Below, one piece after another: positions 9,781 to 28,243 of a stretch of DNA of 64,000 nucleotides; position 1 is the first letter of the stretch; every line of letters begins with the position of its first letter. Both the position numbers and the translations under genes were made by a program. The DNA lies in NCBI GenBank assembly GCA_001804565.1, contig MHAC01000008.1, positions 3,446 through 67,445 on the forward strand, given 5' to 3'. The DNA is from Ignavibacteria bacterium GWF2_33_9. Its GTDB lineage: Bacteria; Bacteroidota; Ignavibacteria; Kapaibacteriales; UBA2268. The notes beneath the pieces were generated by a model. That model ran no database searches and was not told where the DNA came from. It saw nothing but the letters and a program-made list of their open reading frames with translations.

Positions 9781-9974
9781 CTGTTTTGTGTTATATACTG
9801 TAAGTAAATACTACGCACCCTTTGCTATAACTTACTTGCAAGAATATATTTTATAAATATTTTCAAAAAAAATAAAAATAATTGGGAAAATTTTTGTAAA
9901 TTAAATTTTGAAGAAATGCAAACTTATTAATTAGAATATTTTAGTATTATATTTAAAATTTATTGAGGTTTTTT

Positions 9975-12900: not shown

Positions 12901-14117
12901 TTTATGGTCCTGCAAATACATCTTCCGGTGTTTTCACTAATGATGCAACTGTTTACACTTTGAGCCAGACAGAAATAACTCGCCAGCCTGTAAGCACTGA
13001 AGCAGAAATGGGCGGTACAGTATTCTTTGAAGTAGAAGTTCACATCAAAGGTATCGTTGCACCATACTTCCAGCATAAATACCAATGGTGGCGTCATGTA
13101 AATAATGAAGATGTTCAGTTAATGGACAATGATTACTTTGCAAATACTAAATCACCAATAATGACTATTACAAATCTCCAGGATTTGCATTTCTCAGGCG
13201 AAGATGATTATTACTATTGTGTGATTCAAGGCCAATGCGGTGAAGTTACTACTGAAAACGTTACACTTGGCTTAGTTAGCGGTTCAATCGTTATTAATAC
13301 TGATCCAATTGATCAAACAAGCTGTATTGGGTCAACAACAGTGTTCACCTGCGAGGCTTCAGTAGTTGGAAGTCAGGAAATCCTTACTTATCAATGGTTC
13401 CAAGGTGGTGTTGCTTTGGTTGATGATGCAAGAATTATCGGGTCAACCACTAATATGCTCACAATTGCAAATGCTGCACCAACTGACGAAACAACATATT
13501 ACTGCGAAGTATATGCAACTGAATCCGGACAATCTGCTCAAACTGAAGTAGCAATGCTTACTATTGAATATCCTGCTACAATAGATGTGCAGCCTGAAGA
13601 CCAAACAATCAAAGAAAGCGAAACAGTTAGTCTCTTTGTGGGAGCTTCGGGTTATGGTACAATTACTTATCAATGGTATTTCAATGATGCTATAATCGGT
13701 GGTGCTAATACTCCTGATTTCGAAATCGTAGGTGCAACTATTGATAATAGTGGATTCTATTATTGTGCTATAACTAATGAATGCGGTACAATTAATTCAA
13801 CAACAGTACAGGTTATTGTAGAAAAAGATGGTGGAACAACAAGCATAACAGATGCAAATGCAATTCAATTGCAAGTTACACCTAATCCTGCAATTTCCGA
13901 TATTAATGTGAACTTCACTTTGGCTGATGCTGCAAATGTTCAAATCAATATTATTGATATGACAGGAAGAACAATTGCAATGAAAGACGTGAATGCAGTT
14001 TCCGGTTTGAATACTGTGAAAATGAATTTAGGTCATAAAGTAGCAAGTGGTTCGTATTTCATTCAGGTTACATACAATAATGAAACTTACACACAACAAA
14101 TCGTTGTAAATAAATAA
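9975..14117 (+). CDS. large secreted beta-helix/Ig-like-repeat protein with T9SS C-terminal sorting domain (adhesin/hydrolase-like)
   Basis: Signal peptide at the ATG at 9975. Right-handed parallel beta-helix-like N/T/G-rich repeats, four Ig-like repeats (YQWxxxG...YYC). The T9SS CTD is LQVTPNPAISDINVNF...GSYFIQVTYNNETYTQQIVVNK. Confidence 0.7.
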   Translation: MKNTFTAFKKYWGILAILFITLIFTQSSAFSQCSYCSATTTYEYEGIKRVEFGDIDNTTGWGSSVQNYTSQSTDVVATIGTTMKITNLNAYYADLVYAYIDMNHNCTYDANEAFSITSSDDGATFSGTITVPTTALPGSTTMRIRLVDVSSYPYSFIICGSVDWGETEEYSVNIKLPAPDAAITEIITPTYPYNEGNYPISMKLANLGLDNLIGCTINWSVNGVEQNPYYWSGNLSQKDNPVQIQLGNYDFIYPDGSNFDPFTIRVWLTDIKSNGGFPDSDPSNHDKETKTNPSTEDVAAMSISQPSSSFVPGPVQIAVTIQNNARKLLTSCYVDWYVDGTLQGSQLWFGSLAQGETAEVIVGTYNFYFKTPLAPFTIDAETRMPNGVDDPITSNDACTRNVAPSLVAGTFYVGGPTAHFPKLADAVSYLNASGIIGDGDVYLKFNNGTYNEQGMFLTFPHGNNHFYFESASGNPSDVTLSFATNTMYNYILGFDGMNNVTIRNLTFNASNGGAGTNVAVYNGYDFTFNNVRFNGIYNTSNSNYSLVRFENTSDASFTNCTFYGGYNGIDVLDYINLTVNSGTFTNYGHYGVYQEAMYEGYLVSGKLNQKNKIQSAQPIEITNSTFNGMGQNPHGGIRIMQPAFITDNYFANFSSSVSEMAAIVVESDGSEHTLIKNNEIEKLNGVTGIAFIGDNANITENSVSTSSDSFSPLYGIFLQASNVEFSYNNVIVKDAGYQTNGIVSFYSNGVIANNLIVSENGPAFTAIENSGLGAFYNTLISNYDGQEGAANFNYGYNSFMRNIVMNYGTGHSVTSSFANVNSGENIFLTRGNTNDSDLNSWITNTGDQTSSNAAIELSDDGKYLYSKFQEPALTDYPLGIGPLEAYDYYGMERAGWFYAGYAGITLEITINEQPKPILACVGDENQELYASAKMNYGVKPSYQWQKDGVNIPGADKPIYRITEFTYETTGIYRCLIYGPANTSSGVFTNDATVYTLSQTEITRQPVSTEAEMGGTVFFEVEVHIKGIVAPYFQHKYQWWRHVNNEDVQLMDNDYFANTKSPIMTITNLQDLHFSGEDDYYYCVIQGQCGEVTTENVTLGLVSGSIVINTDPIDQTSCIGSTTVFTCEASVVGSQEILTYQWFQGGVALVDDARIIGSTTNMLTIANAAPTDETTYYCEVYATESGQSAQTEVAMLTIEYPATIDVQPEDQTIKESETVSLFVGASGYGTITYQWYFNDAIIGGANTPDFEIVGATIDNSGFYYCAITNECGTINSTTVQVIVEKDGGTTSITDANAIQLQVTPNPAISDINVNFTLADAANVQINIIDMTGRTIAMKDVNAVSGLNTVKMNLGHKVASGSYFIQVTYNNETYTQQIVVNK

Positions 14118-22725: not shown

Positions 22726-22863
22726 TTAGTTATTTTGGGATTTTTTATCCACATAAAACCATTTCTGTATTTTATTAGCCAATTTTTTCTGCAAATTTTA
22801 TATTGGATAATTTTCATTAAATTTTTGTAATTTGCATTTACTTAAAAACTTAATCTCGAATTT

Positions 22864-25800
22864 ATGAGTTTCTTCCAAAAATCAGTCGTTTCGAAGTATC
22901 TCAATAACCTGAACAAAGAGACAGTCAGTTCTGCTTTTTTGTTATTCAAAGAACATTTCCTTAATCCCGATATTCAGAAAAATATTCGTTCAATCAACGA
23001 AGAACAATATCAGCAGGGTTTCTTCAATGACCTTTTCGTAAAAGTTCTAGGCTATACTCTTAGTCCTAATTCAAACTTTAATTTACTGCCTGAATACAAA
23101 AACGAAAAGGACAGCAAGAAAGCTGATGGTGCTATTGTCATAAATAACAATGTGAGGGCTGTAATTGAGCTGAAAGATACGAAAACAACGGATTTGGGCA
23201 AGGTGGAAACTCAGGCATTCGGTTACAAGAATAATCAGAAGGACTGCCCCTACGTAATTATCTCGAACTTCGAGAAACTACGCTTCTATGTAGATAATTC
23301 AGTTGACTGCATCGAGTTCAATCTCTTTACTCTTTCTGAGGAAGATTTTACCATTCTTTATCTGATTCTTTCATACGAAAGTATCGAAAAGGACATTCCG
23401 AAGAAGCTGAAGAGCGAAACCGTCAATCAGGACGACATTACAACCAAGAAACTTTATAATGATTATTCCGTTTTCAAGAAAGAACTTTTCCAAAATCTTA
23501 TTGCAAAAAATCCAAATTTCGATAAACTTACTCTTTTCAAAAAATCGCAAAAGCTGATAGACCGACTTCTTTTCATTTTCTTTGCGGAAGACCGTGGCTT
23601 GCTTCCTCCCAATTCCGTCCGGCAAATAATTCAGGATTGGCAGAAGTTAGGTGAACTCGACAGCTATTCTCCGCTTTATTCTCGATTCCAAAAGTTTTTC
23701 GGTTATCTCAATACCGGCTACCAAAGCCCAACGCTAAAGATTTTTGCGTATAATGGCGGACTTTTCGAACCGGATGAAGTGTTGGACTCAATTTCTATTG
23801 ACGATGAGATTCTTAATGAGAATACACTCCGGTTGAGCCGTTATGACTTCGAAACAGAAGTGGACGTGAATATTCTTGGGCATATTTTCGAGCATTCGCT
23901 GAACGAAATCGAGGAAATCCAATCCGAACTTGAAGGTAAAGTTCCTGACAAATCTAAATCCAAACGCAAGAAGGACGGAATTTTCTATACTCCTAAGTAT
24001 ATTACGAAATATATCGTGGAAAATACTCTCGGTACTTTGTGCTCGGAAAAACGGATTGAATTTGGTTTGAATGATGACGAAACTGAAGAAACCAAGCGGA
24101 AAGCTGAAAAGAAGGATTTACTCGAGAGGATTGATTCTTACCGCAAATGGCTTTTGGAACTCACTATTTGCGACCCTGCTTGCGGTTCGGGTGCTTTTCT
24201 GAATCAGGCATTGGACTTTCTGCTGAACGAACATCGCCGACTTGATGAGCTTACAGCCCGAACACTTGATTTGCCGATTGTTTTCTCCGATATAGAAAAT
24301 TCGGTTCTTGAAAATAATATCTTCGGGGTGGACATCAACGAGGAAGCTGTGGAAATAGCCAAGCTCTCGCTTTGGTTACGCACTGCCCAAAGAGGCAGGA
24401 AGCTCAATACTCTAAGTAATAATATAAAATGCGGCAACTCGCTGATAGACGACCCCGCTGTTGCAGGCGATAAAGCGTTCAATTGGCAGGAAGAATTTCC
24501 AAGAGTATTCAAGAGTAATATTTCGGAATTTCATCTTGTAACCTTTGCTACAAAATATTCACGAATACCATTTGAAAATATTCCAAAAAACTATAATGAT
24601 GTATTTGTAAAATTAGATGAAGATGAAAGAATAATATTTGCTAAATGTTTAGCAGAAAAAGCTTCAAAATTAAATTTCAAAATTTTAGCAACTGCAATAC
24701 TACCAGACCATATTCATTTAGTATTAGCTACAATGGGTCATTCACTTTCTAAAATCATGAATGAAATAAAAGGATATTCAGCTTATAAAATAAACGAATA
24801 CAGAAGAAGTAAAAAAAGCAACTACACCATTTATGGTGTAGGAGAAAGAGCAGAAGTGGAAACTCCATCTGATAGCAACTACACCCTTCAGGGTGTAGGA
24901 AAGAACACAAAACAAGGGGTAGAAGATACATCAGAAAACCGTGATACAGCCCACATCGTAAACGATGTGGTTGCAGAACAGGATAGCAACTACACCATTT
25001 ATGGTGTAGGAGAAAAAGCAGAGGCTGATACTCCTTCTGATAGCAACTACACCCTTCAGGGTGTAGGAAAGAACACAAAACAAGGGGTAGAAGGTACATC
25101 AGAAAACCGTGATACAGCCCACATCCTAAAGGATGTGGTTGCAGAACAGGACGACAACTACACCATTTATGGTGTAGGAGAAAGAGCAGAGGCTGATACT
25201 CCTTCTGATAGCAACTACACCCTTCAGGGTGTAGGAGATGAGCCACATCGTGTAGGCAATAAGAAAGATACGACAGACAAAGGTACTCCCCACATCCTAA
25301 AGGATTCACCCCACATCCTAAAGGATGTGGTTGCAGAACATATTTGGGGACGCAGGTATAGCAATACTTTTCTTGATGATGATTCTCACTTATATAACGC
25401 TATAAACTATGTAAATAACAATTATGAAAAACACAAAGAGAAGTGGGGCAATCTAGAGAATGAAAAGATATCCCACATCCTAAAGGATGTGGTTGTAGAA
25501 ATAGATATACACGATAGCAACTACACCCTTCAGGGTGTAGGAAATACAACAGAACATACAGATAGTACTCTGTCCCACATCCTAAAGGATGTGGTTGCAG
25601 AACAGGACGACAACTACACCATTTATAGTGTAGAAGAAAAGAAAGATACAACTGATAGCAACTACACCCTTCAGGGTGTAGGAAAGAACACAAAACAAGT
25701 GGTAGAAGGTACATCAGAAAACCGTGATGAAGCCCACATCCTAAAGGATGTGGTTGCAGAACAGGACCGCAACTACACCATTTATGGTGTAGGAGAAAAG

Positions 25801-27489
25801 AAAGATACGACTGATAGCAACTACACCATTTATGGTGTAGGAGAAAAAGCAGAGACTGACACTCCTTCTGATAGCAACTACACCATTTATGGTGTGGGAG
25901 AAAAGAAAGATACGACTGATAGCAACTACACCCTTCAGGGTGTAGGAGAAAAAGCAGAGACTGACACTCCTTCTGATAGCAACTACACCCTTCAGGGTGT
26001 AGGCAATAAAAACCAATTCTCATACTTTTCCGGCGGCTTCGATGTCATTATCGGCAATCCTCCATACGGTGCTGAATTGGATAATAAAACTAAAGAGTAT
26101 TTTAAAACAATTTATAATGATGTTCATTATAGAACAATTGATACTTTTAACTATTTTATTTCTAAATCTCTAAAAATTCTTAATCATAATGGTTTTTTAT
26201 CTTTAATTGTTCCTAATAATCTTCTATACCAACATGAGTATTTTGTAACAAGAAAATTATTAGTTGAAGAAAATAAGTTGATTAGAGTTATTAATTTAGG
26301 AGATTCTGTATTTCAAGATGCAGATGTACCTACTTGTGTTTTTATTGTCAATAAAATTAAAGCTGAAAATTATAAATTTGAATATAAAGATATTCGAAAT
26401 GAAGTTATTAAGCAAGAAAAAATTAATGAAAATTTCGATTTAATCAGTTCGAATACTATTTTACAATTACCTTCAAATATTATTGGCATCTCTGATAAAA
26501 TTTTTAATTTGATTGAAAAAGTAAATTCTAAATCAGTTTTAATTGATGAAATTGCCGAAGAAGTCGCTTCAGGTATATCTTCTGGAGGAGATAAAATCTT
26601 CAGAATTTCAAAAGAATTTGCAGAATCAAATTTGTTTGAAAAGGAATTATTATATAAAGTTCTAGTTGGAAGTGAAATGAATAGATATGCATTAAATTCC
26701 TCAAATAATCTTATTATTTATTCAGTAAAATCATCAGAAACCGAAAAAAAATCGAATATTTACAATTATTTATTAAATTTCAAAGAACAATTATCTCGAA
26801 AGAGGGAAACTCTAAAAGGAACTTTACCATGGTATTGTTTGCATTGGCCACGTTATAAAGAATTGTTTACAGAAGAAAAAGTCATTTTAAGACAAACATC
26901 TGATGATATACGTGCTACCTATGATAATATGGGATATTTTACACTTGATAGTATATTAATTTTAAAATTGCTAAAAAATGATTATTCATATAAATTCATA
27001 ACATCATTATTAAATTCTAAAATTATAAGTTTCATATATAAGAATCTTACAATGGAAGAAGGAAGGACTTTTGCACAAGTCAAGCCTATTAATATCCGTA
27101 AACTCCCTATCCCAAATATCTCTCCCAATGCCCAGCTCCCTTTCATCGAAAAAGCAGATTTAATGCTGAAGTTGAATAAAGACCTGCAGGAAGGAAAAAA
27201 TGCTTTTATTACCTTCATAAAAGGTGAATATAATTTAGATAGAATCAATACCAAACTGGAAGAATGGTACAATTTGCCTTTCGACAGCTTCACAAAAGAA
27301 CTCGAAAAACTGAAAGTGAAACTAACTTCCACTCAGAAATACGACCTGAAGCCCCTTTTCGACCGAGAAGCCGCCAAACTTTTGGCAATAAAAACCGAAA
27401 TCGAAACCACCGACCGAGAAATAGACCAAATGGTATATAAACTCTACGACCTAACAGAAGAAGAAATCAAGATAGTGGAGGGGAAATAA
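22864..27489 (+). CDS. Type IIG restriction-modification enzyme (N-terminal PD-ExK nuclease plus gamma-class N6-adenine MTase plus TRD; MmeI/Eco57I-like) carrying a 1.5-kb in-frame insertion
   Basis: PD-ExK: ADGAIV...VIELKDTK (nt 23124-23175). MTase motif I is ICDPACGSGAFL (nt ~24172). FNWQEEFPRVF is followed only after about 500 aa by GGFDVIIGNPPYG (motif IV, nt 26032-26070); in family members these two segments are separated by about 10-20 aa. The C-terminus ...MVYKLYDLTEEEIKIVEGK is the hallmark tail of this family. Confidence 0.7.
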   Translation: MSFFQKSVVSKYLNNLNKETVSSAFLLFKEHFLNPDIQKNIRSINEEQYQQGFFNDLFVKVLGYTLSPNSNFNLLPEYKNEKDSKKADGAIVINNNVRAVIELKDTKTTDLGKVETQAFGYKNNQKDCPYVIISNFEKLRFYVDNSVDCIEFNLFTLSEEDFTILYLILSYESIEKDIPKKLKSETVNQDDITTKKLYNDYSVFKKELFQNLIAKNPNFDKLTLFKKSQKLIDRLLFIFFAEDRGLLPPNSVRQIIQDWQKLGELDSYSPLYSRFQKFFGYLNTGYQSPTLKIFAYNGGLFEPDEVLDSISIDDEILNENTLRLSRYDFETEVDVNILGHIFEHSLNEIEEIQSELEGKVPDKSKSKRKKDGIFYTPKYITKYIVENTLGTLCSEKRIEFGLNDDETEETKRKAEKKDLLERIDSYRKWLLELTICDPACGSGAFLNQALDFLLNEHRRLDELTARTLDLPIVFSDIENSVLENNIFGVDINEEAVEIAKLSLWLRTAQRGRKLNTLSNNIKCGNSLIDDPAVAGDKAFNWQEEFPRVFKSNISEFHLVTFATKYSRIPFENIPKNYNDVFVKLDEDERIIFAKCLAEKASKLNFKILATAILPDHIHLVLATMGHSLSKIMNEIKGYSAYKINEYRRSKKSNYTIYGVGERAEVETPSDSNYTLQGVGKNTKQGVEDTSENRDTAHIVNDVVAEQDSNYTIYGVGEKAEADTPSDSNYTLQGVGKNTKQGVEGTSENRDTAHILKDVVAEQDDNYTIYGVGERAEADTPSDSNYTLQGVGDEPHRVGNKKDTTDKGTPHILKDSPHILKDVVAEHIWGRRYSNTFLDDDSHLYNAINYVNNNYEKHKEKWGNLENEKISHILKDVVVEIDIHDSNYTLQGVGNTTEHTDSTLSHILKDVVAEQDDNYTIYSVEEKKDTTDSNYTLQGVGKNTKQVVEGTSENRDEAHILKDVVAEQDRNYTIYGVGEKKDTTDSNYTIYGVGEKAETDTPSDSNYTIYGVGEKKDTTDSNYTLQGVGEKAETDTPSDSNYTLQGVGNKNQFSYFSGGFDVIIGNPPYGAELDNKTKEYFKTIYNDVHYRTIDTFNYFISKSLKILNHNGFLSLIVPNNLLYQHEYFVTRKLLVEENKLIRVINLGDSVFQDADVPTCVFIVNKIKAENYKFEYKDIRNEVIKQEKINENFDLISSNTILQLPSNIIGISDKIFNLIEKVNSKSVLIDEIAEEVASGISSGGDKIFRISKEFAESNLFEKELLYKVLVGSEMNRYALNSSNNLIIYSVKSSETEKKSNIYNYLLNFKEQLSRKRETLKGTLPWYCLHWPRYKELFTEEKVILRQTSDDIRATYDNMGYFTLDSILILKLLKNDYSYKFITSLLNSKIISFIYKNLTMEEGRTFAQVKPINIRKLPIPNISPNAQLPFIEKADLMLKLNKDLQEGKNAFITFIKGEYNLDRINTKLEEWYNLPFDSFTKELEKLKVKLTSTQKYDLKPLFDREAAKLLAIKTEIETTDREIDQMVYKLYDLTEEEIKIVEGK
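24532..26031 (+). mobile_element. in-frame insertion: split RAYT/IS200-like Y1 HUH transposase domain plus REP-like hairpin array
   Basis: EFHLVTFATKYSRIPFE...ILATAILPDHIHLVLAT...IKGYSAYKIN matches the TnpA_IS200/RAYT N-terminal half (yHlvw.tKyRr; HUH motif HIHLV). HIWGRRYSNTFLDDDSHLYNAINYVNNNYEKH (nt 25340-25440) matches the TnpA C-terminal half (WqrSYydhvird...l...YI.nNP). The two halves are separated, and also followed, by palindromic repeat arrays. Confidence 0.6.
24822..26002. repeat. tandem array of three perfect-hairpin palindrome families with GTAG/CTAC ends (REP-like), 168-bp in-frame period
   Basis: H1 CTACACCA-TTTA-TGGTGTAG (e.g. 24822-24841, 24990, 25158, 25614...). H2 CTACACCC-TTCA-GGGTGTAG (24879-24898...). 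H3 CCACATCC-TAAA-GGATGTGG (25118-25138...). A variant CCACATCG-TAAA-CGATGTGG at 24951-24970 keeps the pairing through a compensatory change. H1 start-to-start distances are 168, 168 and 456 nt (24822, 24990, 25158, 25614) and 148, 60 and 55 nt thereafter, so the regular 168-bp period applies only to the first part of the array. Confidence 0.85.
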
Positions 27490-27490
27490 A

Positions 27491-28243
27491 ATGGAGAAAA
27501 CAATGGAAGATAATATGAAACATTTCAGAACAATGTATTTAATAGGTGCAATATCCACAATTGCAGTTTTATGCGGTATTGTCCTTGATATGATGATTGG
27601 TTCTATTACCGGTGGCGACCTAACGTCTCTGCCTCAAACAGCAGTAGAAAGATTTAACCAATTAAATCAAAATTGGATTTTAGGATTATACAATCTTGAC
27701 TTTTTGAATTTAATTAATCAAATAATATTAATACCATCAGTATTTTCAATTTATCTAGTGCATAAATATGATGATAATGGTTACGCATTGTTAACCTTAA
27801 TCCTATTTTTAATTGGGACAACAATATTTATAACAAATAATACTGCCTTGACGATGTTCGAATTAAGCAAAAAATACTTTACTGCCGTTTCAGCAGAACA
27901 AAGGAATTTAATTGCTTCTGCAGGAGAGGCAATGTTAGCCAAAGGAGCACACGGCAGTTTAAGTGTATTTATTGGTTTTGCACTACCCACATTTGCAAAT
28001 ATCTTATTATCGCATGTGATGATAAAAAGGAGAATATTCTCTAAAACAACATCAATATTTGGATTAGTCGGAAATATTTTAATGTTATTATACATTATAC
28101 TTGTTACATTTAGCCCTTCCGTAGAAAAAATTGCAATTCTGATAGCAATGCCGGGAGGATTATTGGTAATGTCTTGGATGATAATGTATATGTTAAAACT
28201 TTTAAAATTAAGTTTTTCAGAAGTTACCAGCTACACGACCTAA
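27491..28243 (+). CDS. hypothetical polytopic membrane protein (cassette between RM 3'-end copies)
   Basis: 250 aa with about 6 TM helices. The ATG overlaps the RM stop (TAAAATG). Confidence 0.5.
   Translation: MEKTMEDNMKHFRTMYLIGAISTIAVLCGIVLDMMIGSITGGDLTSLPQTAVERFNQLNQNWILGLYNLDFLNLINQIILIPSVFSIYLVHKYDDNGYALLTLILFLIGTTIFITNNTALTMFELSKKYFTAVSAEQRNLIASAGEAMLAKGAHGSLSVFIGFALPTFANILLSHVMIKRRIFSKTTSIFGLVGNILMLLYIILVTFSPSVEKIAILIAMPGGLLVMSWMIMYMLKLLKLSFSEVTSYTT

Follow-up and report, generated by a model that had tools for sequence, protein, structure and literature searches.

A RAYT-like HUH domain and a cluster of putative cognate hairpins nested in frame in a Type IIG restriction-modification gene of an Ignavibacteria bacterium

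How does a Type IIG restriction-modification (RM) gene come to carry about 500 additional residues within its methylase core, and what do these residues encode? The question arises in a 64,000-nucleotide stretch of Ignavibacteria bacterium GWF2_33_9 (GenBank assembly GCA_001804565.1, contig MHAC01000008.1, positions 3,446 to 67,445), hereafter the window, in which a 1541-aa open reading frame (ORF) shows this excess between its FNWQEEFPRVF segment and motif IV (GGFDVIIGNPPY). An earlier note on this DNA had proposed that a split HUH transposase domain, resembling the repetitive extragenic palindrome (REP)-associated tyrosine transposases (RAYTs), lies there in frame together with arrays of hairpins, and the analysis confirmed this layout. 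The locus probably represents a Type IIG RM gene of natural origin that harbors a REPtron-like unit, consisting of a RAYT-like domain and its cognate hairpins, nested in frame in a surface loop ahead of motif IV. The features and their coordinates are collected in Table 1.

Pfam matches along the ORF followed the order MmeI_N, MmeI_hel, MmeI_Mtase, Y1_Tnp, Eco57I and TaqI_C, with the transposase domain between MmeI_Mtase and Eco57I, as the earlier note had anticipated; the MmeI_N match was weak (23 bits, against a cut-off of 27). The PADLOC model REase_MTase_IIG scored 871 bits, and its first matched stretch ended at aa 551, which is the insertion point. Motif I (DPACGSG), motif IV (NPPY) and a D...ELK nuclease motif were all recognized in the translation. 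The host protein is of the MmeI/Eco57I Type IIG architecture, and both restriction and methylation activities are predicted from its sequence.

The position of the insert was fixed by comparison with homologues. In 77 of 121 proteins (the 120 best matches plus the query), the FxWxxxFPxxF segment starts exactly 14 aa ahead of GFDxxIGNPPY, versus a spacing of 519 aa in the window gene. Nucleotide homology to an empty-site allele (L002) stops at 24497, the Pfam Eco57I match resumes at aa 1049, and the two junctions read KSN/ISEF and SYFS/GGFD. Solved relatives of the host enzyme, namely, MmeI (5hr4), CamA and BrxX/PglX, have a short loop at this position. Within the insert, the N-terminal part of the RAYT-like domain is followed by hairpin array 1, the C-terminal part of the domain, hairpin array 2 and nine further residues that lead into motif IV.

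Table 1. Features of the nested locus (positions refer to the window)
Feature	Position	Strand	Evidence
Type IIG (MmeI/Eco57I-family) RM ORF hosting the nested element, 1541 aa	22864..27489	+	ORF, Pfam, PADLOC
Left anchor FNWQEEFPRVF plus KSN, final RM residues ahead of the insert	24478..24519	+	Motif positions, end of PADLOC stretch
RAYT-like Y1-HUH domain, N-terminal part: beta1 EFHLVTFATKYSR, HUH motif DHIH, IKGYSAYKIN helix	24520..24816	+	Pfam, NCBIfam, family profile, AlphaFold, Foldseek
Hairpin array 1 (HUH-to-Tyr linker)	24817..25338	+	Repeats, hairpin search, frame analysis
Array 1, A-type hairpin starts	24822, 24879, 24990, 25047, 25158, 25215	+	
Array 1, B-type hairpin starts	24951, 25119, 25311; partial B, 25290-25305	+	
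RAYT-like domain, C-terminal part: HIWGRRYSNTF strand and YVNNNYEKH helix	25339..25449	+	Alignment, profile, AlphaFold
Hairpin array 2 (RAYT-like domain to motif IV)	25450..26004	+	Repeats, hairpin search, frame analysis
Array 2, A-type hairpin starts	25521, 25614, 25662, 25773, 25821, 25878, 25926, 25983	+	
Array 2, B-type hairpin starts	25473, 25575, 25734	+	
In-frame segment of 462 bp absent from contig L005 (protein P0001, 1387 aa)	25547..26008	+	blastn, L005 versus window
Right junction NKNQFSYFS plus motif IV GGFDVIIGNPPY (26032-26067), where the RM methylase core resumes	26005..26067	+	Sequence, motif positions

The inserted domain carries the sequence signature of a Y1-HUH protein. Its HUH motif, D615-H616-I617-H618 (nucleotides 24706 to 24717), aligned with DH[ILVM]H in 26 nested relatives and in solved transposases, and Tyr849 (25408 to 25410), within YVNNNYEKH, occupied an invariant column of the family alignment; a Trp residue and the pattern Y..N..KH were likewise conserved in the 26 nested relatives. 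Pfam Y1_Tnp (PF01797) matched aa 575 to 652 (E=2e-11; 44.4 bits, against a cut-off of 23) over positions 14 to 89 of its 121. A profile of the nested-RAYT family matched the ORF in two abutting pieces (profile positions 2 to 105 and 104 to 137), both segments of the split domain thereby proving Y1-like. The domain is interrupted only once, by array 1, and not twice as had been claimed, array 2 coming after it. A search of the 64-kb window with the nested-RAYT profile yielded no second copy.

Structure prediction was in agreement with these matches. When aa 545 to 880 were modeled with an alignment of relatives, AlphaFold packed both halves of the domain together, with predicted local distance difference test (pLDDT) values of 93 to 96 for the HUH half and 87 to 94 for the Tyr half, and left array 1 disordered (pLDDT, <50). 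In a Foldseek comparison with the PDB, the top 29 matches were all IS200/IS605 transposases (target-normalized TM-scores, ∼0.5 to 0.6), and the Escherichia coli RAYT 4er8 ranked 30th; the family profile, for its part, retrieved the solved ISDra2 and IS608 transposases as well as 4er8. A full-length model of the homologue P0087 had folded RM domains (mean pLDDT, 80.8), and the order of strands and helices in its nested domain matched that of the window domain. HUH motif, single Tyr, profile score and fold all fit, and the domain belongs to the Y1-HUH superfamily. In the model it forms a complete Y1-HUH fold with the HUH motif and Tyr intact, and it may be catalytically active. It has neither a start nor a stop codon of its own, nor any terminal left-end or right-end structure, and its Tyr motif is of the form Y...N; the signature of TnpA-IS200 is Y...Q (PMC6006769).

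The remainder of the insert is built from two perfect hairpins. The A-type, CTACACC-N6-GGTGTAG, is present in 14 copies and the B-type, CCACATCC-TAAA-GGATGTGG (CCACATC-N6-GATGTGG), in 6 copies plus one partial copy, none being expected in shuffled sequence. All 20 complete hairpins fall within 1.2 kb around the nested domain, neither type was found in the remaining 62 kb of the window, and 18 of the 24 strong perfect hairpins of the whole window lie in the 1.5-kb insert. Array 1 consists of a 168-bp unit repeated 2.5 times and is translated as SNYT(I/L)(Y/Q)GVG and HILKDVV repeats, whereas array 2 has periods of 48, 57 and 105 bp, each a multiple of 3. The codon phase is identical in all 20 complete copies, and the insert forms a single open frame, as the earlier note had stated: the frame used has no stop codon over its whole length, versus 41 and 48 in the other two forward frames, and within array 1 alone the counts are 0 versus 13 in each.

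Such regularity might be taken to mean that the arrays are peptide-level repeats under selection and that their palindromy at the DNA level is incidental, since all copies share one frame, their periods are multiples of 3 and the encoded peptides repeat regularly. We consider this very unlikely. The stems are perfect over 8 to 9 bp, with single-stranded DNA (ssDNA) folding energies of -7.1 to -7.7 kcal/mol (z = -3.4 to -4.7), a compensatory double change preserves the stem of the B copy at 24951, related hairpins occur in different frames and outside ORFs (see below), and the encoded segment is predicted to be disordered.

In REPs, the palindrome is preceded on its 5' side by a conserved tetranucleotide, GTAG (PMC8266576), and the earlier note had described the palindromes of the insert as bounded by GTAG. 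Only the A-type is bounded by CTAC...GTAG. On both strands, its GTAG closes the stem at the 3' side and does not precede the palindrome as in canonical REPs; the B-type and the ACAAGGG family have no GTAG. The argument built on this motif is superficial. Three reverse-strand ORFs overlie the arrays (24755-25309, 25400-26023 and 25741-26016; 184, 207 and 91 aa); the first two arise because one reverse frame is stop free across both arrays. None of the three showed any sign of being a gene, and they were rejected as mirror-frame artifacts of the palindromes. An Rfam search of the region returned only chance, sub-threshold microRNA matches, and therefore the insert is neither an IStron nor an intron.

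A chimeric or mis-assembled repeat, or an engineered construct (the last had been raised in the earlier note), seems hardly credible: three contigs from separate records encode the identical 1541-aa protein, which, together with the presence of an isolate genome among the relatives, excludes an engineered origin, and the nested architecture recurs in complete genomes and in that isolate. The proteins encoded next to the ORF match those of the metagenome-assembled genome GWF2_33_9 exactly. What could be read in favor of mis-assembly is contig L005, which is otherwise 99.98 to 100% identical to the window but lacks 462 bp of array 2, given that short-read assemblers can collapse or expand repeats. 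The ends of this deletion fall in two identical 34-bp A-hairpin repeats, and its boundaries are accordingly ambiguous by 34 bp; the difference could be a real in-frame variant or a repeat collapsed in assembly. Every repeat period, as well as this sole observed indel, is a multiple of 3, and thus the on/off phase variation by frameshift that had been suggested for the gene is unsupported.

The empty-site allele P0002 (contigs L001 to L004) is 92% identical in nucleotide sequence to the window across positions 22799 to 24497 and 84% identical across the terminal 380 bp (27114 to 27491), and its N-half is 97% identical to that of the window protein. Its methylase C-half, specificity domain and flanks are unrelated to those of the window, and its genomic context is different. 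Since the two genes differ throughout the middle, P0002 is a recombinant and not the pre-insertion state. The P0002 gene is followed by an overlapping HEPN_AbiV gene.

The earlier note had held that nothing like this arrangement was standard, which did not stand up to a wider survey. Among the 121 homologues, 28 have a RAYT-like domain in the same loop, all of them retaining the HUH motif and Y..N..KH, 77 have an empty loop and 16 have an unrelated helical insert there. A scan of species-representative genomes (one per species), with the alignment of the RAYT subtype as the query, found 190 stretches encoding this subtype, mostly in Bacteroidales, Lentimicrobiaceae, Prolixibacteraceae and Flavobacteriales and in some Ignavibacteria, Chlorobiota and Cloacimonadota. 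Of these loci, 80 were fetched; in 50 of them a single ORF has the domain flanked by its EFP and NPPY motifs. An intact 1309-aa RM gene with the nested domain is present in the isolate Tangfeifania diversioriginum DSM 27063 (L029, 8186 to 12115, NZ_FQZE01000001.1), and this gene also holds the hairpin-encoded peptides GEHAPHV and REHAPRR. The JGI automatic annotation labels some of the homologues "RayT / RM methylase."

The window RAYT belongs to a divergent subtype, with 29 to 41% identity to the mainstream one, versus ∼70% for the RM N-half. Its nearest relatives among 1.84 billion representative proteins (44 to 54% identity) are contiguous domains nested in Eco57I-type enzymes, further families with the domain at the same site, and several of these hosts carry a different N-terminal nuclease domain. 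When species-representative genomes were scanned for the exact A-type hairpin pattern, there was no match. The window gene is not alone: it belongs to a widespread RAYT-in-RM architecture that recurs in many FCB-group genomes, and among the members found it has the greatest hairpin expansion, with a HUH-to-Tyr linker of 174 aa (median, 42; range, 12 to 118) and a tail after the Tyr helix of 194 aa (median, 29; range, 25 to 95).

Several further loci deserve description. L104 (3316 to 7182; JGI Ga0209490_10000045) encodes a 1289-aa ISP_coupler plus N6_Mtase protein that has a RAYT, flanked by identical AACAAGGGGCTTAAGCCCCTTGTT hairpins, within its Type_ISP_C specificity domain and a (TRGL)n hairpin-derived array at aa 607 to 640. 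This locus adds another host family and another insertion site. The protein P0003 of Candidatus Kapaibacterium sp. (L007), whose specificity half is 72% identical to that of the window protein, has arrays of the ACAAGGGGTTGCAACCCCTTGT hairpin at three sites: ahead of the methylase core, in the RAYT on the N-terminal side of the HUH motif and past the Tyr helix. It is thus another gene with heavy hairpin colonization. P0133 (L172, 5001 to 5498; ENA ERZ27300156, k141_1138365), a free-standing RAYT of the window subtype, has six in-frame TGA codons at positions where Trp is expected, which suggests that its host reads TGA as Trp (genetic code 4 or 25). The helical insert, ∼70 aa long in most of the 16 proteins and coiled-coil-like (PDYLKLIKEKSLEAQAKAEQ...YEYAEKLE), occupies the loop that corresponds to 24511-26031 of the window; its carriers are P0016, P0020, P0023, P0026, P0028, P0034, P0035, P0039, P0045, P0047, P0064, P0068, P0074, P0081, P0089 and P0114.

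The association of hairpins with the nested domain was general. In 53 nested loci, perfect hairpins with stems of at least 8 bp reached a density of 2.16 per kb in the insert, versus 0.21 in the rest of the RM gene, 0.37 in the 300-bp gene edges and 0.08 in the flanks. For the ACAAGG...CCTTGT family, the values were 1.05 per kb in the inserts and 0.006 per kb in 506 kb of flanks. At least one perfect hairpin was present in the HUH-to-Tyr linker in 42 of 52 loci and after the Tyr helix in 15, and 5 loci had none. RAYT-bearing RM genes also have the same hairpins in other loops, near aa 95, at aa 360 to 430 and in the C-terminal region. Peptides encoded by hairpins were found only in RAYT-bearing genes, in the N-half of 7 of 27 such proteins versus 0 of 93 without a RAYT (P = 1.5e-5, Fisher test). 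In L006, the 3.49-Mb contig encoding P0087, perfect hairpins of the ACAAGG family at 9829-9870 and 13514-13545 (stems of 15 and 20 bp) bracket the whole RAYT-bearing RM ORF, 106 bp upstream and 10 bp downstream.

What is maintained in these hairpins appears to be the nucleic acid. Two frames are used for one and the same stem, which encodes TRGHAPLS in the linker and NKGLQPLV past the Tyr helix, and several Watson-Crick pair types occur per stem position across relatives, as tallied by pair type among hairpins that had been selected for pairing. This combination argues for selection on DNA (or RNA) structure and not on the peptide, and the reading of one hairpin family in different frames marks it as a DNA-level element. 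In relatives of the window subtype, the linker peptide VNRRFKSSV or VNRTLKGTV is encoded by a perfect 12- to 13-bp hairpin, GAACCG...CGGTTC, with compensatory differences between loci.

The hairpins also follow the protein. Just 3' of the gene in L092 lies GCAACTGCACCCTGAAGGGTGCAG, a counterpart of the A-type with one compensated pair, and L098 and L099 have CCATATCCTTCAGGATATGG, a counterpart of the B-type. These counterparts stand beside RAYTs of the same subtype as that of the window, and thus hairpin type tracks RAYT subtype. Free-standing members of the family show a comparable layout. In L171 (4485 to 5767; GCA_014379665.1, JACMLK010000375.1), where there is no RM gene close by, a 209-aa RAYT of this clade has the hairpin pair CAATGGGTTGAAACCCATTG and CAAGGGGTTTCAACCCCTTG both upstream and downstream of its gene, in a REPtron-like arrangement; of the pair within the gene, the first hairpin is perfect, whereas the second persists solely as the peptide SKGFQPIA. 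In the downstream copy, adjoining coding sequence of the RAYT is duplicated as well (KAIKGKSAYLFNK...). Another free-standing gene, L173, has one hairpin in the linker.

The HUH half had an estimated dN/dS of ∼0.18, the Tyr half one of ∼0.27 and the RM N-half one of 0.07, values that are rough because synonymous sites are near saturation. Purifying selection and intact catalytic residues mean that the domain is not a decaying recent insertion, although they do not indicate who benefits. A recent selfish IS200/IS605-type insertion, in frame by chance and tolerated since both restriction and methylation disappear at once in a Type IIG enzyme, is an unlikely explanation. It would account for the fact that the best fold and profile matches are IS200/IS605 transposases, and P0002, with its almost identical N-half and empty site, could pass for the uninserted state were it not a recombinant. 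The unit has no start, stop or element ends and is single copy in 64 kb, its Tyr motif is Y...N rather than the Y...Q of TnpA-IS200 (PMC6006769), and the same site is occupied in many diverged genomes, across which RAYT identity (mean, 0.65) is similar to that of the RM N-half.

On the tree of RM N-halves, the proteins with a RAYT occupy scattered positions. RAYT distances follow those of the N-half (rho = 0.40) and not those of the C-half (rho = 0.00), which ruled out that the domain travels with the specificity half. In every class, the history of the N-half is uncoupled from that of the C-half. Enzymes with an empty site show the same degree of mosaicism (N-half/C-half Spearman coefficients, 0.18 versus -0.03), and the RAYT as the cause of specificity-domain shuffling was set aside for want of specificity to RAYT bearers. 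Outside the loop, P0049, which has a RAYT, and P0034, which has the coiled-coil insert, share 93% identity on one side and 90% on the other, and thus the loop content is an exchangeable cassette; recombination in conserved motif-coding DNA explains, at least partly, the patchy distribution of the domain. A neighbor-joining tree of nested and free-standing Y1 domains had too little resolution to show or deny a single origin.

These data also bear on a different proposal, namely, that the HUH domain is a domesticated, working part of the defense enzyme and that the hairpins are functional sites and not parasites. Its role could be, for example, the targeting of single-stranded or hairpin DNA of invaders, dimerization, autoregulation through the hairpins of its own gene or mRNA, or the exchange of specificity halves. 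The conservation of catalytic residues in all 28 homologues, the overall dN/dS of ∼0.2 and the long intact ORFs in many species are what such a module would be expected to show; the unit lies exactly at the recombination junction of N-half and specificity half, and the P0049/P0034 swap suggests a site for accessory modules. Yet the 77 close homologues with an empty loop work without an insert, shuffling of halves proceeds in empty-site enzymes with no need for a RAYT, and free-standing relatives have the same intragenic and flanking hairpins outside any RM context. We regard domestication as possible but rather doubtful.

The nested REPtron-like unit remains the explanation that we favor. RAYTs and IS200/IS605 transposases bind ssDNA hairpins and cut and rejoin beside them; RAYT cleavage and strand transfer on REP hairpins are established, and REPs cluster near tnpA-REP in some REPtrons (PMC8266576). 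By analogy, the domain would be made as part of the RM polypeptide and would bind the hairpins of its own gene on ssDNA. Cleavage and strand transfer by the domain, aided by slippage or unequal recombination between copies, would multiply the hairpins locally. Only copies that are in phase, stop free and located in disordered loops would survive the selection that acts on the RM ORF and on the Tyr helix downstream.

A number of observations weigh against this proposal. Long retention under purifying selection fits a role beneficial to the host equally well. Tandem units of 168, 105, 57 and 48 bp can arise by slippage or unequal recombination without any RAYT activity, and in two pairs of paralogues from the same genome there was no sign of recent intragenomic transfer, the RAYTs being no more alike than the N-halves. 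The Fisher P value for hairpin-encoded peptides is optimistic because hairpins in other loops of related genes may be inherited and not independent events. The best-scoring Y1 model in NCBIfam, REP_Tyr_transpos, reached 44.8 bits, under its cut-off of 80, and the IS200 model reached 34.4 bits, under its cut-off of 55; the window hairpins also do not have the canonical 5' GTAG guide. On NCBIfam scores, GTAG guide, lack of its own gene and Tyr motif, the domain falls outside the strict definitions of both RAYT and IS200 transposase.

More tentatively, these loci could represent a distinct class of element: an HUH unit free of promoter, start codon and splicing that sits in frame in RM genes and seeds hairpins into coding DNA, at different sites in different RM families (the Eco57I-type loop and the Type ISP specificity domain). 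The predicted nicking and joining of ssDNA may have been co-opted by the defense enzyme, or modules may be exchanged through this activity where the conserved and specificity parts meet. A literature search, incomplete in coverage, yielded no paper that describes an RM gene with a RAYT nested in it.

RAYTs and REP hairpins are abundant, and how REPs spread and why RAYTs persist are debated. The lineage described here is unusual in having given up its own gene to become a domain of a defense enzyme, with its cognate hairpin in its own coding sequence, and in that, in the DNA examined, the hairpins accumulate only in the gene that encodes it. Protein and putative substrate lie on one DNA fragment, which offers a compact system for testing cis-acting hairpin multiplication and is suited to tests of the tolerance of a methylase core to insertion and of HUH chemistry in defense or specificity shuffling. 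Genes of this kind are easily mistaken for fusions, pseudogenes or assembly errors, and a major survey of Y1 proteins left out over-long proteins on that account (PMC6006769). The cultured carrier T. diversioriginum DSM 27063 makes experiments feasible.

Mosaicism of N-half and specificity half is known in MmeI-family Type IIG enzymes, and the window host shares with them the domain order, the motifs and the mosaic halves. It differs from them in the nested domain, no solved or characterized member having been found with a domain in the EFPxVF-to-motif-IV loop. Inteins with homing endonucleases resemble the insert in being in-frame nuclease modules beside a conserved catalytic motif, expressed from the signals of the host gene. 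Unlike them, the window insert has neither a Hint domain (no Hint-family Pfam match at E≤1) nor splice-junction residues, and it stays in the mature protein.

Rickettsia palindromic elements, which Ogata et al. in 2000 reportedly described as inserting in frame in protein-coding genes, offer another parallel: they are selfish-looking palindromic DNA that proteins tolerate, in frame, in their surface regions and that adds peptide segments once translated. They are 100 to 150 bp long and dispersed over many genes, and they are not known to have a cognate enzyme; the window hairpins, in contrast, are ∼20 bp long, confined to one gene and adjacent to the enzyme presumed to act on them. With the IS200/IS605 transposases TnpA of IS608 and ISDra2, which are the best structural matches, the window domain shares the fold and the HUH and Tyr motifs, and their ssDNA hairpin substrates are like the substrate proposed here. 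The unit departs from an IS200/IS605 element in having no ends and no ORF of its own, in being single copy in 64 kb and in its Y...N motif.

The closest parallel in layout is with REPtrons. REPs typically number tens to hundreds of extragenic copies per genome, whereas no genome-wide dispersal of hairpins was seen in the DNA examined (62 kb of the window and 506 kb of relatives' flanks). The window RAYT also differs from REPtrons in having no gene of its own, being a domain nested in an RM enzyme, and its hairpins, devoid of a 5' GTAG guide tetranucleotide, lie inside translated coding sequence, including the HUH-to-Tyr linker of the RAYT itself. In common with the REPtrons of E. coli, Stenotrophomonas and Marinomonas (PMC8266576, PMC6006769), it combines a single-copy Y1-HUH protein with short perfect palindromes beside it. 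Hairpin variants alternate in its arrays as they do in bacterial interspersed mosaic elements, the hairpin covaries with the protein, and the hairpins cluster at the gene, as in the REPtrons of Marinomonas.

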